DNA of 64,000 nucleotides from a virus (Duplodnaviria > Caudoviricetes): positions 43,338-107,337 of IMG/VR virus record IMGVR_UViG_3300017909_004140. One strand, 5' to 3'. This document shows, piece by piece, positions 6,677-36,342 of the stretch. The stretch's first letter is position 1; every line of letters begins with the position of its first letter. The position numbers and the translations under genes were made by a program. The notes below the pieces were generated by a model. The model was not told the DNA's origin. It did no database searches and was given only the letters and a program-made list of their open reading frames with translations.

Positions 6677-7364
6677 TACTGTTCCATAAATTATCCCAAT
6701 TTACTACAGGACTCATATGAAATGGTGTTAGATGTGTAGAACAACCAGGTACAGGAGATATACAAGGGTGTGTTTGGAACATTTCTTTTGTTGGGTTATG
6801 TGGAGCAGTTTCATTTATAAGATCCCAACACTCTAACCAAGTTTTTGTTTTACCAGCAAAAGTATATGTTGTTGAGGGATTGGTTCTCCAGTGTCTGTCT
6901 GTATCTACCATTAAAAAACAAGGAGTCTTATCTTTGGTATACCTATCAGGGTAATCCATTGTAGTAACCCAGTTATTCCATTTTGTAAAAATTAGTTTCA
7001 TAGCAGAGATTGCGTCTGGAGTATGTAGGTAATCATCTTCAACTACGTAATGAACCTCTTCTGGATCGCTCATATCTAACTGTGTTTTTAAAAATTCTAA
7101 CATTTTAAAGGTGTGAAGCCTGTCGTGAATATCGTGTTTAGGAATTTCTAAAAAAGTTGTGTTCTCATAAGAATTTTTTTCTATAAAATCCATTGTTTCT
7201 TGTGTTACATCATCATGCAATATGAAAACTTCATCAGACTCTTCAATTCCATCATAAATAGATTTCCAACATTTGCGAACAGTTTTCCACTTAGGAATTT
7301 CATCCCACCTAGGAACTCCACTAACACTTTCTTGTTTTTCACAGCATCGAAAGTAAATTTTCAT
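6660..7364 (-). CDS. Putative GT-A fold glycosyltransferase
   Basis: YVVEDDYLH (DxD-like) motif, YPDRY; operon context. Confidence 0.55.
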   Translation of the reverse strand: MKIYFRCCEKQESVSGVPRWDEIPKWKTVRKCWKSIYDGIEESDEVFILHDDVTQETMDFIEKNSYENTTFLEIPKHDIHDRLHTFKMLEFLKTQLDMSDPEEVHYVVEDDYLHTPDAISAMKLIFTKWNNWVTTMDYPDRYTKDKTPCFLMVDTDRHWRTNPSTTYTFAGKTKTWLECWDLINETAPHNPTKEMFQTHPCISPVPGCSTHLTPFHMSPVVNWDNLWNSIDIEG

Positions 7365-8079: not shown

Positions 8080-8098
8080 TTTTCTTCCTTTAAATAGT

Positions 8099-8126
8099 AT
8101 TATACACAAATTGTAAAAATTTTCAA
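8099..8126 (-). promoter_or_regulatory. Sigma70-type promoter of the sugar operon
   Basis: Minus strand TTGAAA-N16-TATAAT. Confidence 0.55.
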
Positions 8127-10508: not shown

Positions 10509-11642
10509 ATGAGACTAGAAGAAGACCTTAAATTAGACTATAAAGATGTATTAATTCGTCCAAAAAGATCTGTACTTGGTAGTCGTAAAGAGGTAGATCT
10601 AAAAAGAGGATTTACTTTTCGTAACTATAACGGCAGTAAAAAAAATGATAGACACTGGCGCGGTATTCCTTTAATGGCAGCAAATATGGACGGTGTTGGT
10701 ACATTTGAAATGGCAGATACTTTGTCTGAGCATTACATTTTTACCTGTCTGAAAAAAACTTATTCTGTTAGTGATCTCGTTATGTTTTTTGACACCAATA
10801 CTTATTTGCGTACCGAGTATGTTGCGATGAGTATTGGTATCACAGAGAGCGACCATCAAAAGTTTCGTGATGTGTATGAACAAGCTGATACTAGTCTAAA
10901 ATATGTTTGTATTGATGTGGCAAATGGATATAGTCAGAGATTTCTAGACTTTGTTAAGAATTTCAGAAAACTATACCCTAATATTGTAATTATTGCTGGT
11001 AATGTTGTTACAGCAGATCAAACACAGGAGTTAATTTTAAATGGAGCCGATATTGTTAAAGTGGGCATTGGCCCTGGGTCTGTTTGTACTACTAGGATTC
11101 AAACGGGTGTTGGTTATCCTCAGCTTAGTGCTGTTATTGAGTGTGCTGATGCCGCACACGGTCTTGGAGGTCACATCATTGCTGATGGCGGATGTACATG
11201 CCCTGGTGATGTGGCTAAAGCCTTCGCTGGCGGAGCAGATTTTGTAATGCTGGGTGGTATGCTTGCCGGACACGATGAAGGCGGTGGCGAAGTAATTACT
11301 AAAATTTATGAAACTAATGAAGTAACAAAAACTAATGACGGATTCTTTGAATCGGTTTATGAAGAACGTAAGTTTGTACAGTTCTATGGAATGAGTTCTA
11401 AAGCAGCTAATGAAAAGCATTTTGGAGGACTAAAAGAATACAGGTCTTCTGAAGGCAGAGAAGTGCTAATTCCATATAAAGGAGCAGTGTCTAGTACTAT
11501 TCAAAACATATTAGGAGGAATTAGATCTGCTTGCACATATGCTGGAGCTGTTAGGCTAAAGCATTTATCGTTGTGTACTACGTTTGTTCGGTGTACACAA
11601 ACTCATAATTCTGTTTATGAGAGTAGTACTATTGGTGATTAA
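10509..11642 (+). CDS. guaC: GMP reductase
   Basis: [56 protein letters not shown]. Confidence 0.95.
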
Positions 11643-11664
11643 CCCATTTATAATAGGAGATAAA

Positions 11665-11940
11665 ATGGTAAAAAGTAAAGGGTTAGTATTTAAAGGTTTT
11701 TATTCTTTCAATGCATTAGTAGAAAATGCACCTTATCTAGTTAAATGGAATGCAAAAGAAGCATTATCCTGGCTAGAAGAGGCACGTATGCTAGTAGAAA
11801 CTGAGATTCAAGAAAAATCATATAACAAAGCAGTAGAACAAGTTAACAATTTTCTTGACTCTTACGAAAAAAAATCTTATTATGATAAAAAAGAAGTTTG
11901 GGGAATCTATCCTTCTGACAGAGCAATTCCTTATTTTTAA
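11665..11940 (+). CDS. Hypothetical protein
   Basis: GGAG RBS before the ATG at 11665. Confidence 0.6.
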   Translation: MVKSKGLVFKGFYSFNALVENAPYLVKWNAKEALSWLEEARMLVETEIQEKSYNKAVEQVNNFLDSYEKKSYYDKKEVWGIYPSDRAIPYF

Positions 11941-11955
11941 TGCGGAGAACTATAA

Positions 11956-12318
11956 ATGATTAATCCTTATGAGTTTGCTTTTAGAAAAGTAAAGAAAATA
12001 GTAAACTATGATGCTACTGAAGACGAGAAACTAGAAGCAGTAGATAAAACTATGGCTATTCTAGCTACCAAGGTTACTAGTAAGAGCTGGTTTTACTCTC
12101 ATCCTTCTTTTAATGATAAATTTTATTCTGATAGAGGAACCTCAAAAACAGGAGATACTCTTAATATGAATAATCCTTGGCATATTTTCTTTACTAATCT
12201 TCTTTTTAATATTAGCTCTATCACTGATGTGAAAAAAGAAATATGGTATCTAGAAAATAGTGTTAATTATAGAGATTGGATTGTAGAGAATGTCCGAAAA
12301 AAGAGAGTCGCATCATAA
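11956..12318 (+). CDS. Hypothetical protein
   Basis: GGAG RBS, operon packing. Confidence 0.6.
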   Translation: MINPYEFAFRKVKKIVNYDATEDEKLEAVDKTMAILATKVTSKSWFYSHPSFNDKFYSDRGTSKTGDTLNMNNPWHIFFTNLLFNISSITDVKKEIWYLENSVNYRDWIVENVRKKRVAS

Positions 12319-12547
12319 TTTTATGATGAGAAAACTTAGAGAAATGTGGTCTACAGAAGAAGAGAACAAACGTTCTCTTCTAGGAGTTAATTTTAGAGGA
12401 GAACCAGAAAGTTTACTAAACTATGAAGTACCTCAATTAAGAGCAAAAATAGGAGAGCTTCGTGCAGAAGTAGAAGCTCTCAAAGCCGATAACGCTGAAC
12501 TAACAAAATGTTATTATGAAGTTTTAAGGAAAATTGACGATGCCTGA
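12290..12547 (+). CDS. Hypothetical coiled-coil protein
   Basis: Heptad-rich C-terminus. Confidence 0.55.
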   Translation: MSEKRESHHNFMMRKLREMWSTEEENKRSLLGVNFRGEPESLLNYEVPQLRAKIGELRAEVEALKADNAELTKCYYEVLRKIDDA

Positions 12548-15950: not shown

Positions 15951-16156
15951 CAAAGATGTGGAAAAAAGGTAAAAATTATATAGACAGAAAATTAGAAACT
16001 TATTTTATGAGTCGTCCAAATTTGACAGAGGCAGATGAGCGATTGATTCGTAGCTTAATCAAAGATCAGATGCGTTATGGCAAACTAACTACTAATAAAT
16101 GGAATCTAGTTAAAAAACTATACGATCAGTATCAAGAAAAAGGAAGATATGGCTAG
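15947..16156 (+). CDS. Hypothetical protein
   Basis: ORF coupled to its neighbours. Confidence 0.5.
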   Translation: MTKMWKKGKNYIDRKLETYFMSRPNLTEADERLIRSLIKDQMRYGKLTTNKWNLVKKLYDQYQEKGRYG

Positions 16157-16499
16157 TGTACTTGAGCACCTACAAACTAAAAAGCTAACTTCGCTTGTAA
16201 CTTTAACTGACACCGCAAAAGAGTATTTAACCACTGTAACCGATTTTGAAGATAAAAAATATGTTCATCTAACAGTTAACGGTGGAGGTTGTTCTGGTTT
16301 TCAGTATAAGTGGACTATGGTAGATGAGGTCGTAGAAGGAACCTTAATTGACAACATTTTAGTCTTAGATCAAATGGCTGAGATGTTTGTTTTAGGATGT
16401 ACAATTGATTATGTAAAGGAATTAGGAGGATCATACCTCAAAGTGATCAATCCTAACGCTACAGCATCATGTGGTTGTGGTGAAAGTTTTGCAGTGTGA
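16149..16499 (+). CDS. iscA: IscA/HesB A-type Fe-S carrier
   Basis: GGGCSGFQY and NPNATASCGCGESF. Confidence 0.92.
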   Translation: MASVLEHLQTKKLTSLVTLTDTAKEYLTTVTDFEDKKYVHLTVNGGGCSGFQYKWTMVDEVVEGTLIDNILVLDQMAEMFVLGCTIDYVKELGGSYLKVINPNATASCGCGESFAV

Positions 16500-17551
16500 C
16501 TACACAAAAATTATCAACAAAAACAATAGATGTTTCTTCTCTTACTTCAGACGATGATGGTAAAAGAGTAACTGTTGACACTAATAATGCATTAGCGTTA
16601 ATCGCAAGTGATAGTCCTTTTTTTGACCTCCCTAAATTTACCTATACAGGGAGTGTTGCAGGCTATACAGCAGGAGGTCGTGCTCCTCCTACTATGTACA
16701 ATACAGTAGACAAATACCCTTTCAGTTCAGATACTAATGCTACTGACGTAGGAGATCTAACAATTGCGCGTAACTACTACGCTGGGCAATCTTCTACTAC
16801 ACATGGATATGAAACTGGGGGACTAACTTCTGGCAGCCAAGAGACGCAAAAATTTCCTTTTTCTTCTGATGAAAACGCTACTGGAAATCTTTTTGATCTA
16901 TCTATAAAACGATATGGAGGAGCAGGCTGTTCTTCTAGCACTCATGGATATCATGCAGGAGGCTACACTGTTCCAGGGCAACCAGTACCCGTAACCCAAC
17001 AAAACATCATTGATAAGTTTCCTTTCTCTTCAGATGAGAATGCAACAGATGTAGGAGATTTAACAGTAGCTAGAGGAGAGGCAGGTGCTGGTTTTTCTTT
17101 TGCCGAAACTGCGTATGCTGCCGGAGGAAGCCCTGCTACTGATGTGATAAATCGTTGGTCAACTGTATCAGATGGAAATGCTACAGACGTCGGAGAACTA
17201 TTGGTCGCAGTCAATGGGGGTTCTGGATCTAGTAGTGGAACTCACGGGTATCACTGTGGAGGAGATGATGGTTCTATTTCGCGTGATGAAATTTCAAAAT
17301 TTTCGTTTACTTCAAACTCTCCTGCTACAGACATAGCAGAGCTAAGTAGAAGCGCAAGTTTTATAGGAGGAGGAACCTCATCTACTACAAACGGTTATAG
17401 TGTCGGAGGACGACCTAGACCAAGTGTTGGAACTGATATTATAGATAAGTTTCCTTTTTCAAGCGATTCTCCTGCATCAGACATAGGAAATCTTACTGTA
17501 GCAAGGATAGAAGTAGCATCTAACCAATCAGGAATAACTCCAATAGCATAA
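16496..17551 (+). CDS. Putative virion repeat protein (beta-propeller-like), paralog 1
   Basis: About six 45-50 aa repeats: GY.AGG...IDKFPFSSD.NATDVGDL. Confidence 0.65.
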   Translation: MTTQKLSTKTIDVSSLTSDDDGKRVTVDTNNALALIASDSPFFDLPKFTYTGSVAGYTAGGRAPPTMYNTVDKYPFSSDTNATDVGDLTIARNYYAGQSSTTHGYETGGLTSGSQETQKFPFSSDENATGNLFDLSIKRYGGAGCSSSTHGYHAGGYTVPGQPVPVTQQNIIDKFPFSSDENATDVGDLTVARGEAGAGFSFAETAYAAGGSPATDVINRWSTVSDGNATDVGELLVAVNGGSGSSSGTHGYHCGGDDGSISRDEISKFSFTSNSPATDIAELSRSASFIGGGTSSTTNGYSVGGRPRPSVGTDIIDKFPFSSDSPASDIGNLTVARIEVASNQSGITPIA

Positions 17552-24945: not shown

Positions 24946-25558
24946 TTTAGAAGACGGAAATGCACAAGATCTCATTGCATACTGTGCTAGAGTATCAAAC
25001 CCCTCTAACCAGATGAATAGTGAAACAAGTGCTAAACTGATTAAATACCTAATAAATAATCAGCACTGGTCTCCGCTAGAGATGGTAAATGTTTGTTTAG
25101 AGATTGAGACTACACGAGATATTGCGCATCAGATTGTACGCCATCGCTCATTTTCTTTTCAAGAGTTTTCTCAAAGGTACGCTGATCCAAAAGAGTTTGG
25201 TGATCAGTTTGTAAGACGAGAAGCACGACTTCAAGATAGAAAGAACCGACAAAACTCTATTGAAACTGATGATGAAGAGCTACAAAAACAGTGGTTGATT
25301 CAACAAGATCAGGTGATTTTAGCAGCAGACAAAGCTTATAACTGGGCTATTGAGAATGGAATTGCTAAAGAACAGGCTCGTGTAGTTCTTCCAGAAGGCC
25401 TTACTAAAACTCGTTTATATATGAATGGTACTATTAGAAGCTGGGTACACTATATTCAACTACGCGGAGCAAATGGTACACAAAAAGAACATATGGATAT
25501 CGCTCATGAGTGCGCCAAAGTCATAGCTAATGTTTTTCCAATGGCTGAGTATCTATAA
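24899..25558 (+). CDS. thyX: Flavin-dependent thymidylate synthase
   Basis: ARVS, HWSPLE, QIVRHRSFSFQEFSQRY ThyX motif, EQARVVLP. Confidence 0.95.
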   Translation: MQVRLISYTQAAESSDLEDGNAQDLIAYCARVSNPSNQMNSETSAKLIKYLINNQHWSPLEMVNVCLEIETTRDIAHQIVRHRSFSFQEFSQRYADPKEFGDQFVRREARLQDRKNRQNSIETDDEELQKQWLIQQDQVILAADKAYNWAIENGIAKEQARVVLPEGLTKTRLYMNGTIRSWVHYIQLRGANGTQKEHMDIAHECAKVIANVFPMAEYL

Positions 25559-26197
25559 ACAAGAAAGGTCTCTCATCTCAAAGTGAAATGGAAATAGATA
25601 GCGTTTTACTTTTAAAACACTTTTATCTTCTTCTGTATAAGTAATCCCGTAGCATTTAGTTGCGGGATTTTCTATAGGTTCTTCAATTTCTGGAACCCAA
25701 TCTCCCCAGTACGATTGTACGATAAAATCATGAGAGTTAAAAAAGTAAACATCTCTATAGTTCTTATCTAGTCCATGACTTCTTCCAATGCCAAACTGAT
25801 TACCTATAGCTGATTTATAGGGAAGTTGAGGCAATTCATACTTATACATGTCTGCATCATAAGTTTTTAGCACTCTTTTTTTACTGCTTAGATAGTATTT
25901 TATTGCATAAAAGTCTAGTGAGTTAAAGTTCTCTACTTCAAACTCTTCTCTTAAATAGTGTGGACATTTTTCATCAAAAACAACAACTATTGCGTCTTCT
26001 TCATAAGTAGTGTTATTTTTTGAGTGATAACTAATCATATCATAAGAAAAACATAAATCTTTATTAACCTCTTCACTGAAGTAAGTAAATAGTTTATTTT
26101 TTAATTCTAACACATCAGAATCATTTGAATTACCTTTGTAAACATATTCTACAATATTATCAGAGTCATATTGAATTTCTACAAATTTATCAGTCAT
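25553..26197 (-). CDS. Hypothetical protein, last gene of the radical SAM operon
   Basis: Coupled ORF; overlaps the thyX stop tail-to-tail. Confidence 0.6.
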   Translation of the reverse strand: MTDKFVEIQYDSDNIVEYVYKGNSNDSDVLELKNKLFTYFSEEVNKDLCFSYDMISYHSKNNTTYEEDAIVVVFDEKCPHYLREEFEVENFNSLDFYAIKYYLSSKKRVLKTYDADMYKYELPQLPYKSAIGNQFGIGRSHGLDKNYRDVYFFNSHDFIVQSYWGDWVPEIEEPIENPATKCYGITYTEEDKSVLKVKRYLFPFHFEMRDLSCL

Positions 26198-26873
26198 ATC
26201 CTTGTTCTACCTTTTCTTTTATAAACTTTGCTAGCCTGTTAATCCAGAAATAACGAGTCCAATGAACTATTATGCTTACAGGATTTTTACCATTTAATAC
26301 GGCTCCTCCTATGAGAAGTCTACAATAGTACCATCTTTTGTATTTTCGACCAAAACAGTGGTTCCAGTTTTCAGTTTCTTTTTCGATAACCTCTTTAGGT
26401 ATCTCTTCTCCTGCTTTTGTAAAGTATAGCTTGTCTTCAATCTTAAACCAATTTTGGGTTTCATCCATAGTTGGGTCGTCCATTACTTCGTGATAATCAT
26501 TAAAAGGATCATATAAATTTATATTAGTTTGAGATTCTTGATAAAAAACTCTATACTGCGGTAATTTTGCTTTGACTACTTGTTTAGCAAAAGCATCTCT
26601 CGATTTTTTAGACCCAAAACAAATAACAACAAAAGATTCTTCCATCCAATCATGCCCTTCGCAAGAAGAACAGGTTAAATATCCTTTTTTGTTAAGTATC
26701 TCCACTAGAGGCCAAATACCAGGATCTACTTGAGATTTAAACTCTTTCATGTATGGAGAGACAGATACGCCAACCCAATTATTACCTGTAACTGTGGCAT
26801 TGACTCGTCCGTTATCGTGTAGCCAGTTTTTCTTTGTAAAATGCTCTTTTCTATAAAAATCTTTTTTATTCAT
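26190..26873 (-). CDS. Hypothetical protein with an LTCSSCEGH motif
   Basis: VDPGIWPLVEILNKKGYLTCSSCEGH, weakly reminiscent of the Tyw3 N-terminus. Confidence 0.5.
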   Translation of the reverse strand: MNKKDFYRKEHFTKKNWLHDNGRVNATVTGNNWVGVSVSPYMKEFKSQVDPGIWPLVEILNKKGYLTCSSCEGHDWMEESFVVICFGSKKSRDAFAKQVVKAKLPQYRVFYQESQTNINLYDPFNDYHEVMDDPTMDETQNWFKIEDKLYFTKAGEEIPKEVIEKETENWNHCFGRKYKRWYYCRLLIGGAVLNGKNPVSIIVHWTRYFWINRLAKFIKEKVEQGYD

Positions 26874-27382
26874 CTAGGCGTAATTCCTGTAATACACAAG
26901 TTAAAAGTATCAGTTAGTAAAGGAGTTGTTCCATGTACCCACTCTTTATTTATCTGATCACATATGATTACTAGCCCTGTATAAGGAGTTATTTTTTTAA
27001 TATTATTTTTTGTTCCGTATAAAAAGTCTCTACCTTTCATGTCTTTTTCAATATAGTAAATCATAATTTGAACTAATCCACCAAAAGCATTGTCTGTGTG
27101 TAGGTCTACATACTCATTTTTATCTGTTTTATACGCTTCAAAAGTTTCTAATTTATCTAGAAGCTTTTGTAGATACAAATCTACTTTTGTATATAGTTGT
27201 TTGATGAAGAATTGATTAAGATAAGGAGGCATGCCTAGTGTAGACCAACTTACTTCTTTTCCTAGTTGCTTATCTTCATTTGGATAAAAAGTTAATGATT
27301 TTAGTTCTGTTTTTATATTTTTAGGTATTGTAATGCTATCAAAAGCAAAACCATTTTCTATAACTTCTTTGTATGTAATCAT
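26870..27382 (-). CDS. 2OG-Fe(II) oxygenase
   Basis: HTD...WVHG facial triad on a DSBH-like pattern. Confidence 0.65.
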   Translation of the reverse strand: MITYKEVIENGFAFDSITIPKNIKTELKSLTFYPNEDKQLGKEVSWSTLGMPPYLNQFFIKQLYTKVDLYLQKLLDKLETFEAYKTDKNEYVDLHTDNAFGGLVQIMIYYIEKDMKGRDFLYGTKNNIKKITPYTGLVIICDQINKEWVHGTTPLLTDTFNLCITGITPR

Positions 27383-28035
27383 TTTACTAGTATAACTCCT
27401 ACAAAGTTGTATGCTTTCCAGAATACTTCATACTTTTTAAAACCTATTTCTTCTATTTCTTGTAAGATATCTTCCCAAGATCTTATATTCATAGAGGCTC
27501 TTAACTCTTTTTCTTTGAGCATAATATCATCATATCTAAAGAATTTAGCTTTATAATCATAGTTTGCAAAAGTAAACACTTCTTGTAACATTGAGTCGCT
27601 AGAATACGTTTTTTCACAGAGTATTAAGGCTCCGTTAGGTATTAAAGAATCATATATATTTTTTAATACTGTTACTCTATCAGCAGTAGGTAAAAATTGA
27701 AGAGTAAACATAGAGACAGCCAAAGAAACATCAGTGCCAAACTCTAGCTTTCTCACATCTTCAATTTTAAACTCTATATCATTATCTTCCCAGTGAGAAC
27801 AAAAAGCTGTTTCATTATCTATTCCAATATATGAAACATTTTTAGCATGTGATGCTTTTTTTATTTTTCTTAAATTTTTACCAGTAGAACATCCTAAGTC
27901 ATACACTATAGTGTTATCTTGTATAAAAAAACCTGCAATAGTAGTTATCATAGTGCTTAGAGTTTTATATGAAATAATACTTTTTGATATATGATTATCA
28001 AACCCAAACGAGTGTTTTGCAAAGCTAAAACGCAT
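27379..28035 (-). CDS. CmoA-like class I SAM methyltransferase / carboxy-SAM synthase
   Basis: FDNHISKSI..Y, VYDLGCSTG, GIDN, FTLQFL, LILCEK. Confidence 0.75.
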   Translation of the reverse strand: MRFSFAKHSFGFDNHISKSIISYKTLSTMITTIAGFFIQDNTIVYDLGCSTGKNLRKIKKASHAKNVSYIGIDNETAFCSHWEDNDIEFKIEDVRKLEFGTDVSLAVSMFTLQFLPTADRVTVLKNIYDSLIPNGALILCEKTYSSDSMLQEVFTFANYDYKAKFFRYDDIMLKEKELRASMNIRSWEDILQEIEEIGFKKYEVFWKAYNFVGVILVK

Positions 28036-28939
28036 TTTTATACCTGCTTAGTAAATTTATGTACCCATTACAGCTGTTTTTTAAGTCTTTTACAAAACGA
28101 TAGTGTTCTGTTAGGCAGTGTCCTTTCCAAGAGCAATTTTGACAAACAGTAGAGAGAGACTTTTTTTCTTGCCACGCCCATTGTTCATATGTGTTGTAGT
28201 TAGTAAACTCTAAGAAATACTCTTTATCGTTTTTGTCAAAGTCTAGTACTGCATATTTACCATTAGGAGTTATATAGATGTGATCATCTGAAAAAGCATT
28301 ATACTCTTTTGTTAACGATCTTTTAATTCTTGCTTTATTTTCAAAATGAAATTTCTTCTTTATTTTAGATTCCATCCATTTCACAACAAAGTTTTCAAAA
28401 TCTCTATGACTTACTGCGTCTGCATTAGCTTGGTTTATACTATAGGGTTTTATTTCAACAGACTTAACAGCTTTACACATATTTAATTTAGATATCATCA
28501 TATCAACATCTAAATTTAGAACTCTTTTAGAAGCCAGAATTAGAACCGCTATAGGTTTAGAACTCATTAACATATTATTAAAAACTATGTCTGATTTTTC
28601 TCTTGCTGAAAAATCATATGAGACGGAAAGAGTGACATCATCCTCGAAGAATCTGTCGTCAAGCATAGAAAAATTAGTATTAATATTGATGTAATCATGA
28701 TAATGTTTGCGTATAACGGATTTAATTTCTTTGTAGTATTCTTTTTTAAGTGCGCCAATCTCTCCTCCGTATAAGTCTACGTGATCTATTTTTGGAATAT
28801 TTGATAATAGTAGGTCTAGTTTTTCTGGGCTAATTCTTTTTTGATTTCCTAACTGTTCTGGAGTTAAATAACAAAAGTCACATCTGAAATTACAAAAATA
28901 ACTAGGATTTATTGAGACTGAAAATATTTTATCCACCAT
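28025..28939 (-). CDS. Radical SAM enzyme with C-terminal Cys cluster (rSAM 4)
   Basis: CNFRCDFCY, YGGE, C-terminal CQNC..GHC..EH...C. Confidence 0.88.
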   Translation of the reverse strand: MVDKIFSVSINPSYFCNFRCDFCYLTPEQLGNQKRISPEKLDLLLSNIPKIDHVDLYGGEIGALKKEYYKEIKSVIRKHYHDYININTNFSMLDDRFFEDDVTLSVSYDFSAREKSDIVFNNMLMSSKPIAVLILASKRVLNLDVDMMISKLNMCKAVKSVEIKPYSINQANADAVSHRDFENFVVKWMESKIKKKFHFENKARIKRSLTKEYNAFSDDHIYITPNGKYAVLDFDKNDKEYFLEFTNYNTYEQWAWQEKKSLSTVCQNCSWKGHCLTEHYRFVKDLKNSCNGYINLLSRYKNAF

Positions 28940-29334
28940 CTATACTCTTTTCCATTTATAGTTTCATAGTCTTTAGGCTCAAATCCAAATTTTTTTAATA
29001 ATGTGTCTACTCTTTTATGACGACTTAATCCCCAAAGCGGGTTTCCGTTTTCTGGGGTTACAGCATAATTACCCAGTTTATATATTGCGTCAGTGCCTTG
29101 ATATTTTTTATCTATTAAGATAGTTTCAAGATACTCTCCTCTATCAATAGAAACTACTGTATAGTATCCTATAGGTTTATTTTCTAGATAAAGTAGATGT
29201 GCTCTTTGTTTTTGTATTAACTCAATAAAATCATCTTTTTCATCACGTTCTTCTTTTGTCATGTTATAAGATAGAGCAATTAGTATTGGTAAATCATTGA
29301 TGCTAGCTTTTTTAGTTTTGTATATCAAGAACAT
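28909..29334 (-). CDS. GNAT-fold acyltransferase
   Basis: PIGY..., LETILIDKKYQGT (motif A), LLKKFGF. Confidence 0.6.
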   Translation of the reverse strand: MFLIYKTKKASINDLPILIALSYNMTKEERDEKDDFIELIQKQRAHLLYLENKPIGYYTVVSIDRGEYLETILIDKKYQGTDAIYKLGNYAVTPENGNPLWGLSRHKRVDTLLKKFGFEPKDYETINGKEYRWWIKYFQSQ

Positions 29335-30109
29335 CTCCTAATATTCTAATGTCTTGTTCGTGATGCATATTGTGTTCTCTTTTTATCATTGGAGTAATTC
29401 TTGTATCCCAAGATATGCTTATTCTAGGCATTTTAGACTGGTTAGGCTCTACTTCGTGCCAAACCCACGAGGGAAATAGAATGAATTTACCTATTTCAGG
29501 CTTTATGGTAATGTTAGTTGGATTAACTGATTTTGTAGGTTTATCAAAGGTATCGACATAATCACCAAATAAACCAGAAAACTCTAAAGTACTATTATTC
29601 ATCTGTCTACCGTATTCATTATATCTAGAAGTATGATTATGTCTAATAGCATCACTACTTGTTTCGTCACCTGCTTTAGTCAGCATCTCTAAATCTAAAT
29701 ATCCAAAATCCATCATATTAGAATTACCTTTTGGATCTACCATGAGTAGATGACTGTCATGGTCGTTTAACCAAATAGTCCCACTAATATGGTTATTAGG
29801 GTGGTTGTGAATTCCAACATTTTGACTTTGGGGAAGCACATGCGCCCAGGCATAAGACTTTATATCATATTGATCGGACTCAAATAAGTTATTTTTTATA
29901 TACTCTTTTATTGCAGGTACTAAATTATCGTGGTAAAGTGTTTGTAGTAAAGGCTCATCTAAACTAAACAAGTTAAATACCTCTGTCACTTCATCAGGAT
30001 TGTGATATTTATTCAATATATAGTTGAATAAATTTTTAGCTAATTGTTTGTCTACTGTGCCTAAAAGTATAGGAGTTGGCCATAAGTGTCTATGTGTATA
30101 CTGATTCAT
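29312..30109 (-). CDS. 2OG-Fe(II) oxygenase (TIGR02466-like)
   Basis: HNHPNNHISG, LFPSWVWHEV.PN, RISISWD. Confidence 0.8.
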   Translation of the reverse strand: MNQYTHRHLWPTPILLGTVDKQLAKNLFNYILNKYHNPDEVTEVFNLFSLDEPLLQTLYHDNLVPAIKEYIKNNLFESDQYDIKSYAWAHVLPQSQNVGIHNHPNNHISGTIWLNDHDSHLLMVDPKGNSNMMDFGYLDLEMLTKAGDETSSDAIRHNHTSRYNEYGRQMNNSTLEFSGLFGDYVDTFDKPTKSVNPTNITIKPEIGKFILFPSWVWHEVEPNQSKMPRISISWDTRITPMIKREHNMHHEQDIRILGDVLDIQN

Positions 30110-31163
30110 TTACATACTCCGTTGGTATTGCGTCTAGTTTACATATATCTATAATATCAGGTGCTAAAGATTTCATTTTTTTACAATGAATTTCTGTTAA
30201 ATTTAGTCTTTTTAGATCACTGATAGTTTTTCTACATCCATTACATATTTTAAACATTGGACAGGTTAAGCATGATTGTTTTAACACCATTAAGTTAAAA
30301 TCGTTTTGCAATGGGGTTTCTATTTCTTTTTGTGACATCTCTTTGTCAAAATCAATTTTATACTCTTTATCATCTCCAAAAGCTCCACAAGAATAATAGT
30401 CTCCTCCAGGATTTAAGTTTCTAATACTTTCATCACAACGTCTATTTTGTGGGCAGGTAGTATTCGAAGAAAATCTTTTCAATAGCTGAGTAGTATTATA
30501 CTCCCACTCTGAAAGACCTAGTTTGTATATCTGTAAATATTTTTCATATATATCTGCTAGCAAATATGTGTAGTTTTCTAGCCCCATTTTTATACCATTT
30601 AAGAATTTTATTTCAGGCCCGCTCGCTACAGCATAGTTTAACTTACAAACTACTCCCATTTTTTTAGCTAGTAGCACATTATCAATCGCTTTATCCTCGT
30701 TTTCTTTTGTAATTACGGATATGAAATCTGGACGGTAGCCTACTAATTCTTTCATTTTATTTGAAACATTCCAAAAATCTTCTTCACTAAACTCTGTGAA
30801 GTCCCCTTTTAAGCGTCCTCCTCCATATTGAAATGAGGTACATACTCCGACTCTAGGATGCTTAAATAGATTTAACCATTTGTTAGGATTTTTATAAAAA
30901 GGCCAAAGATTAGTAGTTAATGAAATAGTTGTTTCTAAAGCATGCTCCTCTAAATATTCAATTATTTTCCAGTAGTAGTCAGGAGACATCATTAGAGGAT
31001 CACCACCATTTACTATAATAGTGTTTGTATAAGGAAATCTTTTTAGAAACTGAAATATTTTATCATGAGAGAGTTCTACTGTCTTGGAGTCTGCTATTTT
31101 TGTACTTGAGCAAAAAGTACATTTAAAGTTGCAGCGCTCTGTAGGTTTAATTATTAATTCCAT
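30090..31163 (-). CDS. Radical SAM/SPASM enzyme (rSAM 3)
   Basis: IIKPTERCNFKCTFC, GGDP; SPASM CPQNRRC..YSC..CLTCPMFKICNGC..HC. Confidence 0.92.
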   Translation of the reverse strand: MELIIKPTERCNFKCTFCSSTKIADSKTVELSHDKIFQFLKRFPYTNTIIVNGGDPLMMSPDYYWKIIEYLEEHALETTISLTTNLWPFYKNPNKWLNLFKHPRVGVCTSFQYGGGRLKGDFTEFSEEDFWNVSNKMKELVGYRPDFISVITKENEDKAIDNVLLAKKMGVVCKLNYAVASGPEIKFLNGIKMGLENYTYLLADIYEKYLQIYKLGLSEWEYNTTQLLKRFSSNTTCPQNRRCDESIRNLNPGGDYYSCGAFGDDKEYKIDFDKEMSQKEIETPLQNDFNLMVLKQSCLTCPMFKICNGCRKTISDLKRLNLTEIHCKKMKSLAPDIIDICKLDAIPTEYVNESVYT

Positions 31164-32136
31164 CTAAAAACCCCCAATAGTCTTTCAACCAGCAATGCTC
31201 CATAGTAGCTTTTTCTGGTAGTATGTGATTTTCTTGGAAACAACCTAAGCCACACTTACTAAAATAATCACACATTAAACAATTGAATCCTTCTATCCAT
31301 TTTGCTTCCATTTTTTCTCTACTATCGTGGGTCATAGCTCTATAGTTACCTCCTACTAGTAGATTACAATGACCTATTTCTCCATCAGCAGCTATTACAC
31401 TTGTTCTCTGACAGGTTAAATTTTTTCTAGTATCTCCTAATAAATACTTATCTATAGGACTGACTTTAGGATAATTGATACTTAAAAATTTAAACATATC
31501 TAGCAGTTCTGTATCACTAGGGCAGTTTATACTAGCATTTTTTTCAGGAGTGTAGTAGTCAAAATATATATTAAAATTCTCATATAGATAGTCAAATCCA
31601 GTAACTTCTTTGTTTAAAAACTTATAAATATTGGGAGCTGTTAATATGATGTTTACTGTTTGAATATACTCTTTAAAATATCTCACATTATCCATAAAAA
31701 CATCTAACTGGTTAGTATTAAAGCGCCCAGCTGGATCATAACTAACAGCAAGATTTATATTAAGCCTATCTAATAAATTTTTTACTCTGACTCTATCATT
31801 CCATATCATATTAGAAGTAATAAGAAATTCACTATTTTCAAACGATTTTTGGCACCTAAGAATTAAAGACTCAATTTTACTTAAAATTTGATTTGAAATT
31901 TCATCACTCAGAATCTCTCCTCCCATAAAATGAAAGGAAAATTGTTCTTTATTTTGTGCGCGTAAGTTTTCGTAGACGCTTTTTATCGCAAAGTATTTTT
32001 CTGGGATGGAGTTCACACCCTCAAATGAATTATGATTTTGAGAACAAAAACTACACGCAAGATTACAGTGTTCGAATAGGGTAACAATAACCTCTCCTAG
32101 ATTAGACGATTTTTTATCTATTACACTACTGTACAT
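31147..32136 (-). CDS. Radical SAM/SPASM-like enzyme (rSAM 2)
   Basis: CNLACSFC, MGGE; C..GHC..CLMCDYFSKCGLGC..HC. Confidence 0.9.
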   Translation of the reverse strand: MYSSVIDKKSSNLGEVIVTLFEHCNLACSFCSQNHNSFEGVNSIPEKYFAIKSVYENLRAQNKEQFSFHFMGGEILSDEISNQILSKIESLILRCQKSFENSEFLITSNMIWNDRVRVKNLLDRLNINLAVSYDPAGRFNTNQLDVFMDNVRYFKEYIQTVNIILTAPNIYKFLNKEVTGFDYLYENFNIYFDYYTPEKNASINCPSDTELLDMFKFLSINYPKVSPIDKYLLGDTRKNLTCQRTSVIAADGEIGHCNLLVGGNYRAMTHDSREKMEAKWIEGFNCLMCDYFSKCGLGCFQENHILPEKATMEHCWLKDYWGFLDGINN

Positions 32137-33265
32137 AACCTTCTCTGAAACTATGGTGATCTGTTAGTTGCCAACTTCTTACTTTTTTAGTATTTCTTTC
32201 TTTATTATTTACAAAAGGTTTAAACTTATCTCTTTTTTCTTCTAGTGAGTATTCTAACAACTTATCATATCTTTTTTCTTTACAAAGTAGGTAAAAATAT
32301 CTTAGCAAATAGTGGGTTGTTTTGTCTTGGTGTTGATACTCTCCTATGTTACCTCCTGCATATATGGTATTGATATCTATATCAATAATTTTTCTTAAGC
32401 CAATCTCTCCCGTAATGAATAGTTCCATTAACTGCTCGCTGTCAAAAAACCCATTATGTCCATACTTCATCACTGATTTACGATATAACTTAAAAATAGT
32501 TTTCATATCGTAGTTGTTTTTAACATATTCTAAACTAGGATAAGCTTTTATATTCTCATCCATTAGCCAACTATATTCATCAGGTAGTTTTAAATCTGCA
32601 TACTCTGCGGTTTCATATAAGTGAGATCCATAATCAACATTTTCTAATAAGTCTCCTAGTTCGAACAGCTGACACATTACATTCATTTTCCAGTAGGTAA
32701 GTTCGTTCAGCACTGTATCTGCAACTATACCATATAGTTTTTTATACAAAATATCTTTATGTGCATATTTTGTGTTAGATAAATAACTAGCTAAGTGTAG
32801 CTCTGTGCAAGCTCCTTTTATATAACTACTATTTAACTCATGTTTATTACACTGTTCATATACTTTATTGAACTCCTCAAAAGATAATAGTTTTAAAGAA
32901 TCCCAAGGAGACCGTAAATTTATAGAACCATCGTCGTGTGATAAGCATGATTTTCCATGAAGATATATATGCTTTTGTAATACTAGCTTATAAAAGTGAT
33001 AAATAGATAAGGGAGAGTGGTTAGGCAGGATAGATTTTAGATATGTAGTAAGTATTTTTACATAAGTTTCTTCTTCTGCTAAAACTATAAGTTCAGTATC
33101 TTTTTTGATGTTTTTGAAAGCATCGTTACCAAACAAGTCATCAGCATCTTTAAAATAATTCCAAGTGCTAGGAATAGGTGCTTCATACCCAACTAAGAAT
33201 TTAGGAGTGTCCGGAGGGTAACAAAAGCTAAAATCTAGATAAACATTATTTATTAGGTTGAACAC
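32126..33265 (-). CDS. Hypothetical protein in the radical SAM operon
   Basis: 379-aa coupled ORF, no recognised motif. Confidence 0.65.
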   Translation of the reverse strand: MFNLINNVYLDFSFCYPPDTPKFLVGYEAPIPSTWNYFKDADDLFGNDAFKNIKKDTELIVLAEEETYVKILTTYLKSILPNHSPLSIYHFYKLVLQKHIYLHGKSCLSHDDGSINLRSPWDSLKLLSFEEFNKVYEQCNKHELNSSYIKGACTELHLASYLSNTKYAHKDILYKKLYGIVADTVLNELTYWKMNVMCQLFELGDLLENVDYGSHLYETAEYADLKLPDEYSWLMDENIKAYPSLEYVKNNYDMKTIFKLYRKSVMKYGHNGFFDSEQLMELFITGEIGLRKIIDIDINTIYAGGNIGEYQHQDKTTHYLLRYFYLLCKEKRYDKLLEYSLEEKRDKFKPFVNNKERNTKKVRSWQLTDHHSFREGYVQ

Positions 33266-33944
33266 CGGCTGCTATCCCTGATACAAATACTAAAAGTGGC
33301 ACATTATGTTCAAGCATCCAGCCGTATAAATTTTGTTCGTCATAGATATATTCTTCAGAATAGTGTTTAAAATACCTTTTTCTAGAACCAGAGGTTTCGT
33401 ATATTTCAAATATAAAAGGGTTATTAATTAGGTTAATAACATTTTTACCTAATATTTCTGGGTCATCTACTACTTCATAATTTTTTAACTCTTCGTTTAC
33501 AAAATCACTCAGAGAAGATACAAAAGAAAGAGTTGTAATAGGAAGTGACTCTAAGAAATCTGTAGTGTTTAACAGTTCATTATAAAATTCGTCAATAAAC
33601 TTATCTGTCCATTCCTCAGTTAAAAGACTCATAGAGTATAAATCATCAACATCTATATTATTATATTTAAGTACAATGTAGGTTAGCCCTAGCTCAAGCT
33701 CTTTACAGGTGATTAAATTGTTAGATGTAAAGTATAGCCTTAATAGTTCATACTTTTCTTCTTGTGTAGTGTTGTATAGATTAAGTTTAAAATCAATATC
33801 TAGATTAGATACATAATTAAAAAACGTTCTACCACTGATATCACTATCATAATACATTATTTCAAACTGTATTTTTTCTTCTTCCATAAAATATTGTTGT
33901 AAAAGCTCTACGTCAATAGGTGCTTTTGTTTTTATAACTCTCAT
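33246..33944 (-). CDS. Hypothetical acidic protein in the radical SAM operon
   Basis: ATGA-coupled to the candidate substrate gene. Confidence 0.65.
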   Translation of the reverse strand: MRVIKTKAPIDVELLQQYFMEEEKIQFEIMYYDSDISGRTFFNYVSNLDIDFKLNLYNTTQEEKYELLRLYFTSNNLITCKELELGLTYIVLKYNNIDVDDLYSMSLLTEEWTDKFIDEFYNELLNTTDFLESLPITTLSFVSSLSDFVNEELKNYEVVDDPEILGKNVINLINNPFIFEIYETSGSRKRYFKHYSEEYIYDEQNLYGWMLEHNVPLLVFVSGIAAGVQPNK

Positions 33945-34540
33945 CTTCTTCCTCTTGAACTATGACAGTTACTATGACAGCTTGCGTGGCAAGTATCTAC
34001 AAATATAGTAACTTGATTTTCTTTTAAAGTATTCCACTGACTATATAGATTAGCTATATAATCTTCAAAATTAGAGGCGTCTATAACATCTCCTTCTTGA
34101 ATATCATATGTAGCGCTATTATCTGTAACAGTTTGTTTATACGCAGAACCATCTAAGTGAATAAAATCAGTAGTGGTTCTTTGTTGTACATTATTTCCAT
34201 TACCGCTAGGATATCCCGTTCTGTTAAAACGCAGTCTCCAGTTTAGTTTTCTAACTCCTGTATAGTCTCTCGTTAGGTTACGTAAATAAGTTGCTAACTG
34301 TGCCGCATCTACTACTGCGTCTAGTCCCCCGCTAACTGCGGGGGCTACAGTGGGAGTTCCTACTACTGAAAAAGGCACTCCTCCTTTAGGCGCGTTAGTT
34401 AGATTTGAATATGTTCCTGAAGAGAAAGGTGTTCCTGTTCCTACATCAATAACGGGGTTTATAGCATCTCTCATTACTTCGTTAAATCGGTTAACAACTA
34501 GTGCTTTGCTTACTTCATCTCCTGCATTAATAGTCGGCAT
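33941..34540 (-). CDS. Candidate modification substrate: virion-like protein with a C-terminal (C-H-x-S/N)3-RGRR core
   Basis: Ends in DTCHASCHSNCHSSRGRR; Gly/Thr/Ala-rich body; strong AGGAG RBS. Confidence 0.6.
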   Translation of the reverse strand: MPTINAGDEVSKALVVNRFNEVMRDAINPVIDVGTGTPFSSGTYSNLTNAPKGGVPFSVVGTPTVAPAVSGGLDAVVDAAQLATYLRNLTRDYTGVRKLNWRLRFNRTGYPSGNGNNVQQRTTTDFIHLDGSAYKQTVTDNSATYDIQEGDVIDASNFEDYIANLYSQWNTLKENQVTIFVDTCHASCHSNCHSSRGRR

Positions 34541-35564
34541 AATATTCTCCTTGCTTTAATACCTGTATGGGGGTATTTTTTATTAGTTTAAATAGTTCTT
34601 TTGGCGAAGGACAGTGTGATTCATCCCACTCTAATTGATGACATCCGCTACCACACAAATCAAATACTTCGCATTTATAACATCTTTCGTCTCTAGCTGC
34701 TTCACAAGCTATTAGTTCCATTCTTTTAGGTTTGAAAATTAATTCCCAAATCTCTTCATTTATATTACCATAAACTTCTTCAGGAGCAGCATTAGGACAT
34801 CCGCTTATACTACCATCTGCATTTATAGTAAATAATTTTTGTTCACAGTCTCTACAAAAAGTAGCCGCTTGAGTTCCATTTGTTCTTGTTTTGACCATAG
34901 AGTTTATAAATGAATCAGTCCAGTTTTTAGGAGTGGTGTCTTTGTAAATTTCTAAAAACCAATCAGCCTGTTCTTTATTACTGGGAAATATCTCAGGATG
35001 TTTTTTAGCATTTCCATGATCTGTAAGTCTTTCAAAATCTACTACATCTACGTTCAATGAGTTAAAATACTCTATAATTTCTTTAGGTTTAGTATTACAA
35101 AGTTCCTTGGTAACACTCACAAACATCGTTATAAAACAATCTAGCTCTTTTAATCTTTTTACATTTTTCTCCCAAAGAGTTTTTTGTTTTTCATTAGAAA
35201 ACCGTATACTTTTATCCCAAGAAGTTCCAATAACTCCTTTTAAGTCTTCAGTAATAAATTTAATTTTTTCTTCACTTAAATTAAAAGTTAAGTTACTAGT
35301 AATACCAAATGAGACGTTATCATCATACTTCATACTATCAACTACATATTTCATATCTTTAACAGGAGCAAGAAAAGGCTCTCCTCCGTGAAACTCAAAA
35401 TGAATATGATTCGTTTTATAGTGCTTTCTTAATTTTTTTATCCAATCTACTGTTCTTTTAGGATTAAAGTATATTTTTCTACCGTTTATTCCGTTTGTAA
35501 AACAGTGTTTACAATTGAGCTGACAAGTTTCCGTGGTTTTCAGATAAACTGTTATAGGATGCAT
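34527..35564 (-). CDS. Radical SAM/SPASM peptide-maturase-like enzyme (rSAM 1)
   Basis: YLKTTETCQLNCKHC, FHGGEP; SPASM CRDC..GCP..CYKCEVFDLCGSGC..HC. Confidence 0.92.
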   Translation of the reverse strand: MHPITVYLKTTETCQLNCKHCFTNGINGRKIYFNPKRTVDWIKKLRKHYKTNHIHFEFHGGEPFLAPVKDMKYVVDSMKYDDNVSFGITSNLTFNLSEEKIKFITEDLKGVIGTSWDKSIRFSNEKQKTLWEKNVKRLKELDCFITMFVSVTKELCNTKPKEIIEYFNSLNVDVVDFERLTDHGNAKKHPEIFPSNKEQADWFLEIYKDTTPKNWTDSFINSMVKTRTNGTQAATFCRDCEQKLFTINADGSISGCPNAAPEEVYGNINEEIWELIFKPKRMELIACEAARDERCYKCEVFDLCGSGCHQLEWDESHCPSPKELFKLIKNTPIQVLKQGEYYADY

Positions 35565-36123
35565 CGTTTTCCATCTGTAGTGTCTGTAATTTTAAATCAA
35601 TATACTTGTAGTATTTTCTTATACCAAAACTTAATGAAACATTTTCTGTAAGATTGTCTGCATAATGAGCTTTTTCTCCTGGTATAAACACAGACTCGCC
35701 TGCTTTAAGAACAACTTCTTCCTTATGGTCTGGAAATACCATCTTTTTAGTTCCAGAAAGAAGTAGTATTACTACATCATAAGGATCTACGTGAGCAATA
35801 AAACTCGACTTTCCTTCTTTTCCCCAGTATAAGTGACAATCTATATATTCTTCTTCAGTTTTGAAGTTACATATCGTTGAAATGAACTCATCGTATTTTT
35901 CAAACCCTTCTACTTTAAATGTGTTCTTGCTCTTTGCTTTTATTTTTGTTAAAGTATTTTTATAAGAGTTCGGAAATACCATATTTTCTTCAGCATTTTC
36001 AATGTAGAATACTTTTCCATCTCTTATGAAATGATAATTAGTTATCAATTCTATAGGTTTTATATTATGATATTTTTCGTACAATTCATGCGAAAAAGTT
36101 TTTATATGGTTAGATAAATTCAT
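35509..36123 (-). CDS. JmjC/cupin 2OG oxygenase (RoxA/YcfD-like protein hydroxylase)
   Basis: SFIAHVDPYDV...GTKK...LKAGESVFIP...HYA...SLSFG. Confidence 0.75.
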   Translation of the reverse strand: MNLSNHIKTFSHELYEKYHNIKPIELITNYHFIRDGKVFYIENAEENMVFPNSYKNTLTKIKAKSKNTFKVEGFEKYDEFISTICNFKTEEEYIDCHLYWGKEGKSSFIAHVDPYDVVILLLSGTKKMVFPDHKEEVVLKAGESVFIPGEKAHYADNLTENVSLSFGIRKYYKYIDLKLQTLQMENDASYNSLSENHGNLSAQL

Positions 36124-36342
36124 ATGGCTATGATACCACTAAACAAGAATTTTAGCAAGAAAAATTTTACTGCAATTTGTACAGAATGTGGAGAAGACTA
36201 CTCTACTAAAAGAAAAGCATTAGGTTATGATACGTGTTTAGATTGTGGAGAAGATAAGCGAATATTTCCAACAGCTCCAGCTTTTAATAAAGGAGCTTAC
36301 ACTATAGTAACAATGAACAACGTAAGGGATATAGGTAAATGA
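36124..36342 (+). CDS. DksA/TraR-like C4 zinc-finger protein
   Basis: CTECGEDYSTKRKALGYDTCLDC. Confidence 0.65.
   Translation: MAMIPLNKNFSKKNFTAICTECGEDYSTKRKALGYDTCLDCGEDKRIFPTAPAFNKGAYTIVTMNNVRDIGK
36130..36158 (-). promoter_or_regulatory. Promoter of the radical SAM operon (predicted leaderless)
   Basis: Minus strand TTGCTA-N17-(TGn)TATCAT, then 6 nt, then ATG 36123. Confidence 0.65.

Follow-up and report, generated by a model that had tools for sequence, protein, structure and literature searches.

A phage operon of radical SAM enzymes is inherited together with a protein that ends in invariant Cys/His repeats

Results

Organization of the operon

The window analyzed here, a 64,000-nt stretch of tailed-phage DNA (Duplodnaviria; Caudoviricetes; positions 43,338 to 107,337 of IMG/VR record IMGVR_UViG_3300017909_004140), carries 14 minus-strand open reading frames (ORFs) running from 36123 to 25553, which encode four radical S-adenosylmethionine (SAM) enzymes and a protein that ends in a 16-residue stretch of Cys/His repeats (Table 1). 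This stretch is called the tail and the protein the tail protein, and the enzymes encoded at 34527, 31147, 30090 and 28025 were named rSAM1, rSAM2, rSAM3 and rSAM4, respectively, in gene order. Every junction between the ORFs is overlapping or abutting, in agreement with the single overlapping 14-gene operon at 25553-36123 described in an earlier reading made without database searches (the sequence-only reading). The parent viral record is 107,337 bp long with a CheckV completeness of 91%, and near-identical DNA was found in sea-water, marine and estuary metagenomes of several studies.

Table 1. Operon genes in the order of transcription, the tail, and the Fe-S carrier gene of the window
Feature	Position	Strand	Basis or remark
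Cupin, JmjC_2-like metal enzyme, 204 aa	35509..36123	-	PF08007 37.1 bits vs cut-off 22; phrog_8014 77 bits
rSAM1, radical SAM/SPASM, 345 aa, core	34527..35564	-	directly upstream of the tail-protein gene, overlapping it
Tail protein, 199 aa, candidate substrate	33941..34540	-	ends CHASCHSNCHSSRGRR
16-residue tail C-H-A-S-C-H-S-N-C-H-S-S-R-G-R-R, residues 184-199	33944..33991	-	alignment of homologs
p232, acidic, 232 aa, core	33246..33944	-	phrog_20767 116 bits; pI 4.3
p379, 379 aa, core	32126..33265	-	phrog_36207, E 5.5e-7
rSAM2, radical SAM with SPASM-like Cys cluster, 329 aa	31147..32136	-	phrog_1802 134 bits
rSAM3, radical SAM/SPASM, 357 aa, core	30090..31163	-	PF04055 40.1 bits; most conserved component
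2-oxoglutarate (2OG)-Fe(II) oxygenase (2OG-FeII_Oxy_5), 265 aa	29312..30109	-	PF13759 67.3 bits; phrog_81
p141, possible acetyltransferase, 141 aa, clade-specific	28909..29334	-	phrog_1249 20.9 bits, E 5e-4, sole match
rSAM4, radical SAM with 4-Cys C-terminal cluster, 304 aa	28025..28939	-	phrog_1802 92.6 bits
CmoA-like SAM-dependent enzyme, 218 aa, clade-specific	27379..28035	-	phrog_4752 180.6 bits
p170, 170 aa, clade-specific	26870..27382	-	HxD...H pattern by eye only
p227, 227 aa, occasional accessory	26190..26873	-	no family match
p214, 214 aa, last operon gene	25553..26197	-	no family match
A-type Fe-S carrier (IscA/ErpA-like)	16149..16500	+	TIGR00049 78.3 bits vs cut-off 58.8; outside operon

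The Cys/His tail is conserved in proteins of otherwise diverged sequence

No Pfam or NCBIfam model matched the tail protein, and phrog_35144 aligned to its C-terminus only. The CHxxCH motif is unique to the tail in all six frames of the 107-kb genome. The alignment of 31 homologs showed that C184, H185, C188, H189, C192 and H193 are invariant and that S187, S195, R196, R198 and R199 are at least 90% conserved; in homologs from beyond the clade of the window, the protein body is 21-35% identical to that of the window. When 1.84 billion cluster representatives were searched with a profile, the tail protein matched 839 clusters (50% identity) at E <= 1e-3 and 570 at E <= 1e-10, and of the 149 best representatives, which all come from different 50%-identity clusters, 141 keep the CHxxCHxxCH end. 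Judged from these comparisons, the tail is conserved in other phages far beyond chance. The codons at the invariant residues are mixed (TGC/TGT 15/16 and CAC/CAT 16/15), and Ser is encoded by both the AGY and the TCN families, which indicates that the peptide, rather than a nucleic-acid motif, is under selection.

In a salt-marsh metatranscriptome run, a 215-nt contig matched the window only over 51 nt of the tail (33941-33991) and had dissimilar flanks, so that the stretch encoding the tail can be recognized in DNA across different phages. Two related loci each encode two tandem short paralogs of the tail protein (134-140 aa; L055 6062-6879 and L058 9195-10030), each with a CHxxCHxxCHxSRGRR end of its own.

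The structure model of the tail protein showed a partly confident alpha/beta fold, with a predicted local distance difference test (pLDDT) score of 73.5 and a predicted template modelling (pTM) score of 0.74. The tail was modelled at pLDDT 44-58, which is compatible with a flexible and accessible end. Foldseek against the PDB gave no match at E <= 0.001, the best VIA-align Z score was 3.8, and the matches in BFVD were uncharacterised homologs only. The predicted complex of rSAM1 and the tail protein with three clusters and SAM obtained a score of 0.02 and a mark of 0.32 and was used neither way.

The enzyme set follows the ending of the tail

An IMG/VR scan with rSAM1 yielded 48 viral loci with homologs 46-54% identical, 44 of which extend past rSAM1. 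A tail-protein homolog was present in 44/44, nearly always as the next gene, with a tail of CHxxCHxxCH followed by x-S-R-x-R-R or G-S-I. The sequence-only reading had tied the enzymes to the tailed gene, and homologous clusters lacking that gene are the opposite of what was found. The rSAM3 proteins are 56-69% identical across loci in which the body of the tail protein is 22-35% identical, and 1454 metagenomic rSAM3 clusters (90% identity) were matched at E <= 1e-10. Nine contigs among 185,579 species genomes matched the tail protein; all were metagenome-assembled, and those long enough also carry the rSAM set. Homologs of the tail protein or rSAM3 had no functional name in any source, generic names being the most that was given.

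The arrangement is also present in cultured jumbo phages, namely Agrobacterium phage Atu_ph07 (gp172-gp165; tail ...CHSSCHASCHNSRSRR) and Ralstonia phages RSF1 (tail ...CHSSCHSSCHGSRGRR) and RSL2. Further cultured carriers are Burkholderia phages FLC6, FLC8 and SURPRISE13, Sinorhizobium phage Phosso and Pseudomonas phage pPa_SNUABM_DT01. The records of the cultured phages label the cluster genes hypothetical, cupin, or radical SAM / Fe-S oxidoreductase (PMC8066314). Phage GenBank records gave no match to the operon by megablast or to the tail protein by tblastn, and the homologs there were reached via rSAM1 and p232, indicating that the tail protein is too diverged or too low in complexity for tblastn.

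Hidden Markov models of each gene family were scored over all loci, and the comparison used the 41 loci in which 8 kb or more follow the tail gene. Among the 36 loci with a tail ending in S-R-x-R-R, rSAM1, p232, rSAM3 and rSAM2 were each found in 36, p379 and the cupin in 34, and rSAM4 in 33; the fetched stretch stops soon after rSAM3 in the three loci in which rSAM4 was not found. The five loci with other tail endings all had rSAM1, p232 and rSAM3, four of them had p379, and none had rSAM2, rSAM4 or the cupin. These five represent three lineages: three loci with G-S-I, one with four repeats and the ending GDGPGNGGGV (L062), and one gut contig whose tail ends in CHHR. Many of the related loci are close kin, and the counts are not independent events. 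Searches for related loci from the variant tails returned one locus for the 4-repeat variant and none for the GSL variant.

By these comparisons, the conserved unit is a five-gene core (rSAM1, tail protein, p232, p379 and rSAM3) plus a three-gene module (rSAM2, rSAM4 and the cupin) that tracks the RxRR ending. The view of all 14 genes as one conserved unit had to be given up: the CmoA-like methyltransferase, p141, p170 and p214 are limited to the three closest relatives of the window phage, with p141 in L003, L004 and L043 only and the CmoA-like gene in L003 and L004 only. The smallest system, in L062, consists of rSAM1, the tail protein, p232, p379, rSAM3 and one 2OG oxygenase. Homologs of p227 lie between rSAM3 and rSAM4 in L014, L034 and L044, with another in L054, and other lineages add extra 2OG or Asp/Arg-hydroxylase-like genes. 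The shared inheritance strongly supports the view that the radical SAM enzymes and the Cys/His-tailed protein belong to one system.

Several loci carry additional genes. A B12-binding radical SAM enzyme (~570 aa) is added in L009 (16259-18016) and 15 other loci, and a fifth SPASM-like one (~355 aa) is added, for example, in L037 (15977-17035), giving six radical SAM genes in one cluster in some phages. Two dihydrofolate reductase (DHFR) genes and an HNH endonuclease lie between rSAM2 and rSAM3 in RSF1 (L002, 15673-16789). On a 208-kb gut-derived contig (L057, filed under an uncultured Gemella metagenome-assembled genome), the tail ends CHSSCHSNCHHR and is accompanied by rSAM3, three rSAM1-like genes and p232, without the cupin, rSAM2 and rSAM4, indicating that the system reaches beyond marine and soil phages.

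The radical SAM enzymes resemble peptide and protein maturases

The four CxxxCxxC enzymes with C-terminal Cys clusters described in the sequence-only reading were recovered in full. The N-terminal motif is present in 4/4 (Cys 14/18/21 in rSAM1, 24/28/31 in rSAM2, 11/15/18 in rSAM3 and 16/20/23 in rSAM4), C-terminal Cys clusters were read from the sequence in all of them (Cys 242-315 in rSAM2; Cys 266/269/275/290 in rSAM4), and phrog_1802 ('radical SAM domain-containing protein') matched rSAM1, rSAM2, rSAM3 and rSAM4 at 208, 134, 176 and 93 bits, respectively. The PF04055 cut-off (29.5) was passed by rSAM3 alone, the other three spanning 27.2-29.0 bits (rSAM1 28.3). The SPASM subgroup is defined by a C-terminal seven-Cys domain that holds two auxiliary 4Fe-4S clusters. 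Its model TIGR04085 (cut-off 27) was passed by rSAM1 (35.7); rSAM3 (26.3) and rSAM2 (17.6) scored below it, and rSAM4 had no match. C14, C18 and C21 and nine Cys of the SPASM region of rSAM1 are invariant across 28 sequences. Judged from model score and Cys pattern, rSAM1 falls within the SPASM subgroup, and rSAM2 and rSAM3, which have a matching Cys pattern, are probable members.

Pairwise identity among the four enzymes is at most 26%, indicating four old and distinct lineages rather than recent copies. Their best family matches are peptide or protein maturases (DynA 64.9, DarE 61.6, anSME 59.5, CbpB 58.2 and PapB 57.9 bits), and the matches to MoaA, QueE and NrdG were restricted to the N-terminal core, in keeping with the earlier expectation that the enzymes would not group with cofactor or base-modification enzymes. 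YhhB gave the best score among the cyclophane-maturase models (YhhB, XyeB, FxsB, AmcB and GrrM), full-length but weak at 48.8 against a cut-off of 445, and TIGR04115 (cut-off 350) scored 31.5 for rSAM1 and 21.2 for rSAM2. The PapB match was likewise weak and full-length. PADLOC yielded only weak, generic viperin-core matches for the rSAM domains, and the comparison of rSAM3 with PDB sequences gave nothing informative.

Accessory genes of the operon

The PF08007 match of the cupin spans residues 93-127 only, its HxD...H triad (H111, D113 and H153) is invariant in 21 homologs, and its profile matched MINA53 (26 bits), JMJD5 and YcfD-type hydroxylases weakly; the single sequence gave nothing informative against PDB sequences. 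The JmjC-type assignment of the sequence-only reading was thus borne out, and the specific RoxA-like one was not established. Two of the three oxygenases it listed, the cupin and the enzyme at 29312, were backed by family models. The latter aligned with a family present in most loci (c3) at an hhalign probability of 100%. The third, p170, had no match in Pfam, NCBIfam, PHROGs, PDB sequences or hhalign.

The model of p232 reached pLDDT 90.8 and pTM 0.87; Foldseek against the PDB found no match, and the best VIA-align Z score was 5.3 over 57 residues. For p379, hhalign gave a probability of 98.9% with a family at the same gene position in other phages (c4), and its homologs share an LF(N/D)xxYL motif at the N-terminus. 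The ESM Atlas contained no usable match for p232 or p379. The assignment of a Gcn5-related N-acetyltransferase at 28909 was not supported, as p141 had a single weak PHROG match, no Pfam or NCBIfam match and an uninformative PDB sequence search. The CmoA-like enzyme fared better; it matched TIGR00740 (CmoA carboxy-SAM synthase) over its full length at 121.9 bits, below the cut-off of 193.3, and is therefore called CmoA-like only. The carrier gene at 16149, predicted as IscA, was confirmed as an A-type Fe-S carrier and possibly supplies clusters to the enzymes.

At its far end, the operon meets the convergent thyX gene (PF02511, 150.7 bits), which is overlapped by the p214 gene by 6 nt. At the other end, the cupin gene and the first plus-strand ORF (36124-36342) stand back to back at 36123/36124 with zero intergenic bases, so that either both promoters lie within coding sequence or one start was called too early. 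A promoter and terminator scan gave nothing above shuffled expectation. Two salt-marsh metatranscriptome runs contained a small number of contigs of 150-250 nt that fall on rSAM1 and the tail gene (shares 0.05-0.06), which were not counted as evidence of expression because DNA carry-over is possible. A second tightly packed operon of nine genes in the window (121-8109, minus strand) includes a nucleotide-sugar epimerase (phrog_540) and an aminotransferase (phrog_3139) and looks, from these matches, like a sugar-modification pathway.

The cluster lies among tail-fibre and baseplate genes

In T4-like marine relatives, the cluster is preceded by a gp8-like baseplate wedge gene, a gene for a ~2,000-aa DUF4815 protein, a virion structural protein gene and a tail-fibre-like gene, and is followed by a tail-fibre-assembly-like gene and another fibre-like gene. 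Similarly, the cluster of RSF1 and Atu_ph07 adjoins genes annotated as virion structural or baseplate, and the tail-fibre gene of the window (38911-41073) starts 2.8 kb from the operon. Neither Pfam nor PHROGs gave a match for the 953-aa ORF that directly follows this fibre gene (41073-43934, plus strand).

Several independent clusters fuse the tail-protein family to an N-terminal Gly_rich_2 domain (in frame in P0054, P0303 and P0304). This domain, which is presumably linked to gp38, matched a 'tail fiber assembly' PHROG weakly, and the comparison of the fusion with PDB sequences gave nothing informative. In all of the fusions, the extra domains sit at the N-terminus and the tail keeps its place. 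In L005-L008 (about 11001-12369), the tail gene is split into a 308-aa ORF, consisting of the N-terminal helix of the family with Gly_rich_2 inserted after this first helix, and a 140-aa ORF with the remaining body and the CH tail. As circumstantial evidence, the gene neighbourhood and the one recurrent domain fusion suggest that the tail protein is probably associated with the tail fibre.

Pfam and PHROGs scans of the cluster genes and the recurrent neighbour families found no protease or exporter, as the sequence-only reading had stated for the operon. Together with the conserved positions of the body and its partly confident model, this makes an intact modified protein the likelier product.

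Discussion

The gene of rSAM1 overlaps that of a protein with an exposed and invariant Cys-rich end, the enzyme content tracks this end, and the SPASM relatives are maturase-like, which together suggest that the enzymes act on the tail protein as their substrate. We assign a probability of about 0.6 to the reading in which the CHxS repeats at the C-terminus are cross-linked or oxidised by radical SAM/SPASM enzymes and the protein, which probably associates with the tail fibre, remains intact. The sequence-only reading had proposed a modification line acting on the product of 33941; the co-occurrence of enzymes and tail as one system stood, and the modification and the attachment to the virion are what we still infer.

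In the proposed mechanism, a phage-specific pathway would post-translationally modify one protein, the ~190-aa product of 33941, in its exposed 16 C-terminal residues, i.e., three C-H-x-S/N units followed by R-x-R-R. In the core step, rSAM1 and rSAM3, helped by p232 and p379, would act on the Cys/His (CHxS) repeats, the likely chemistry being abstraction of hydrogen and then either intramolecular cross-linking (to Cys thioethers or His-to-residue+2 cyclophanes) or Cys oxidation. Candidate products are Cys thioether cross-links, as made by PapB, CrpC and QhpD; formylglycine from Cys, for which the last tail unit has the sulfatase Cys-to-Arg spacing; and His-C2 to residue+2 cyclophanes, a known radical SAM product whose triceptide motif is suited by H-x-S (PMC11499958). 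A second module of rSAM2, rSAM4 and the JmjC-like cupin, perhaps an Arg or His hydroxylase, would act on, or depend on, the terminal S-R-x-R-R. Further decoration may come from the 2OG oxygenases and, in the window clade, also from the CmoA-like enzyme and small uncharacterised proteins. The product would be neither cut out nor exported and would probably work together with the tail fibre or baseplate, perhaps in the form of a Cys/His knob that is cross-linked and binds metal.

SPASM enzymes that act on whole proteins have precedents in CrpC with CrpA (PMC13692751) and HxsB/C with the HxS-repeat protein HxsA (PMC13128918). The CrpC/CrpA ranthionine system, anSME and QhpD resemble the proposed phage system in that the SPASM enzyme has Cys residues of an adjacent whole protein as its target and works without a leader protease or exporter. 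In the phage C-H-x-S-R unit, Cys and Arg are also spaced as in the sulfatase C-x-(A/P)-x-R, and the A/P position is taken by G, S or N. They differ in that the phages have four different enzymes for three Cys and that the system is phage-borne apart from the nine metagenome-assembled contigs filed under bacteria; for anSME (TIGR03942), moreover, the cut-off is 349.45, against 59.5 for rSAM1 and 57.7 for rSAM3. Short repeated motifs and SPASM-class enzymes are shared with the triceptide/cyclophane systems (XyeB, YhhB, FxsB, HaaB and HtkB; PMC11499958), where H-x-S suits aromatic-X-X, and C-x-x-x suits the CXXX repeat of the Cys-repeat maturases (TIGR04115, PapB), but the substrates of both are short secreted peptides with variable cores, whereas that of the phages would be a ~190-aa protein with an invariant end. 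Compared with the canonical pathway of ribosomally synthesized peptides with post-translational modifications (RiPPs), the candidate precursor gene lies next to a maturase in the 44 loci, but neither the operon nor the scanned recurrent neighbours contain a leader peptidase or exporter. The metal-binding tips of phage fibres and spikes (HxH iron sites of T4 gp37; gp38-type Gly-rich adhesins, PMC12032242) are similar in their tail-fibre setting, His/Cys-rich end and glycine-rich fusion. PDB fold and sequence searches revealed no relation of the tail protein to them. To our knowledge, the metal sites of such tips form without enzymatic maturation.

Several observations weigh against modification of an intact, fibre-associated protein. 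All four radical SAM enzymes miss the cut-off of every characterised maturase family, and they were therefore filed as radical SAM/SPASM only. No RiPP recognition element (RRE) or PqqD-like recognition domain was found; p232 and p379 have no Pfam match and p232 no recognisable fold, and the enzymes themselves have no room for an N-terminal RRE because CxxxCxxC starts at residues 11-24. An invariant 'core' is unusual for RiPPs and equally suits a cofactor or a metal site. The relation of enzyme content to tail ending draws on only three non-RxRR lineages, and L057 has three extra rSAM1-like genes. The records of RSF1 and Atu_ph07 call the tail protein 'hypothetical' while its neighbours are called virion structural, the entries for the cultured phages do not name it among virion components and so lend virion residence no proteomic support, and the window phage genome lacks the gp8 and DUF4815 neighbours.

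An end that is invariant while the body diverges would also fit a tail that forms the core of a small product derived from a peptide (a cofactor, a metallophore or a toxin, for example), which is cut from a ~180-aa carrier after modification, like pyrroloquinoline quinone (PQQ) or mycofactocin. This pattern is known for the cofactor precursors PqqA and MftA, and sets of several SPASM enzymes and oxygenases are typical of such pathways. We regard a cleaved product as quite unlikely in view of the peptidase and transporter families missing from the scanned cluster genes and recurrent neighbours, the conserved positions and confident partial fold of the body, and the fusions, which add N-terminal domains and never shift the tail. 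The three Cys and three His, spaced i, i+4 and i+8, could instead ligate Zn, Fe or a cluster, and the tail protein would then be a helper that binds metal or Fe-S and serves as scaffold, electron donor or chaperone for enzymes acting on tail-fibre proteins, DNA, tRNA or a small molecule. Such a role is favoured by the A-type carrier of the phage, by thyX abutting the operon, by the DHFR genes inside the RSF1 cluster and by the tRNA-type, CmoA-like enzyme of the window clade, but Ser187, Ser195 and R-x-R-R are conserved as strongly as the metal-type ligands, the enzyme content tracks the tail ending as for an enzyme and its substrate, and SPASM enzymes act mostly on peptides and proteins; we therefore consider it unlikely. 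The known phage DNA-modifying radical SAM enzyme resembles SPL and is accompanied by kinase and transferase genes, which are missing here, a further point against the helper role (PMC8989533). DNA hypermodification itself was considered and set aside (PMC8989533).

A parallel in logic is the bacterial HXS defence (TIGR03976-9), in which the HxS-repeat protein HxsA is matured by two radical SAM enzymes, with +8 Da on an S-H-R-S-S motif, and blocks phage DNA entry (PMC13128918). Both systems combine a full-size H-x-S-repeat protein, more than one radical SAM maturase and a basic Ser/His motif in the setting of phage-bacterium conflict (PMC13128918). A phage counterpart, whose matured, Arg-rich protein would bind nucleic acid and block competitor DNA entry or counter the HXS of the host, could be imagined from the H-x-S units and basic end of the tail and from weak HxsB and HxsC matches of rSAM1 and rSAM3. 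However, these scores (HxsB 37.9 vs cut-off 370, HxsC 35.0 vs 267.9) are ~1/10 of the family cut-offs and lower than those of other families, no HxsD or HxsA model matched, the Pfam scan detected no peptidoglycan-binding domain in the tail protein, PADLOC yielded generic viperin-core matches only, and the cluster sits among tail-fibre genes and not early or moron genes. Moreover, HXS is bacterial and defensive, with five HxS repeats, no Cys and a peptidoglycan-binding, N-terminally processed HxsA, whereas the phages have exactly three C-H-x-S units, placed at the very C-terminus, together with four SPASM paralogs, a cupin and 2OG enzymes. The resemblance is one of logic only, and a counterpart of HXS is very improbable.

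Enzymatic modification of the CHxS repeats on an intact protein is thus the reading we prefer. More tentatively, and with considerable doubt, it can be extended to large tailed phages of sea water, soil and gut that build a cross-linked, probably metal-binding Cys/His knob on a tail-fibre-associated protein, using rSAM1 and rSAM3 for CHxS and, as a modular addition, rSAM2, rSAM4 and the cupin for RxRR, the knob being needed for adsorption or infection. If true, this knob would be the first case of a virion component that carries an enzymatically installed radical SAM modification.

Peptides of bacteria and archaea and a handful of proteins are known to be matured by radical SAM/SPASM enzymes, and the maturation of a Cys/His motif on a neighbouring protein by a SPASM enzyme is not new in itself. 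The novelty lies in the setting in phages, in a triple CH motif that is invariant, in two proteins for which no PDB fold match was found and in the modular way in which enzymes relate to motif parts. Full-text literature searches found no description of the tail protein or the system, only gene counts or generic annotation: 12 radical SAM genes and an A-type carrier of a marine T4-like genome were counted as 'Fe-S related' auxiliary genes (PMC5332604), and the FLC6 and RP12 papers hold annotation lists only (PMC8066314, PMC5468394).

Our results define a large, almost entirely phage-borne family with at least 839 tail-protein clusters (50% identity) and more than 1,400 rSAM3 clusters (90% identity), together with a candidate substrate, a minimal five-gene core and a predicted assignment of enzymes to the parts of the motif. 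The system can be tested directly, since cultured phages carry it (Atu_ph07, RSF1/RSL2, FLC6, Phosso and pPa_SNUABM_DT01). From its distribution, the pathway looks like a widespread viral protein-modification system of hundreds of uncultured and several cultured large phages, which mirrors the recently described bacterial HXS defence with its HxS-repeat protein matured by radical SAM enzymes, and it could be a source of novel radical reactions on Cys/His motifs and of a virion or infection factor of a new kind.

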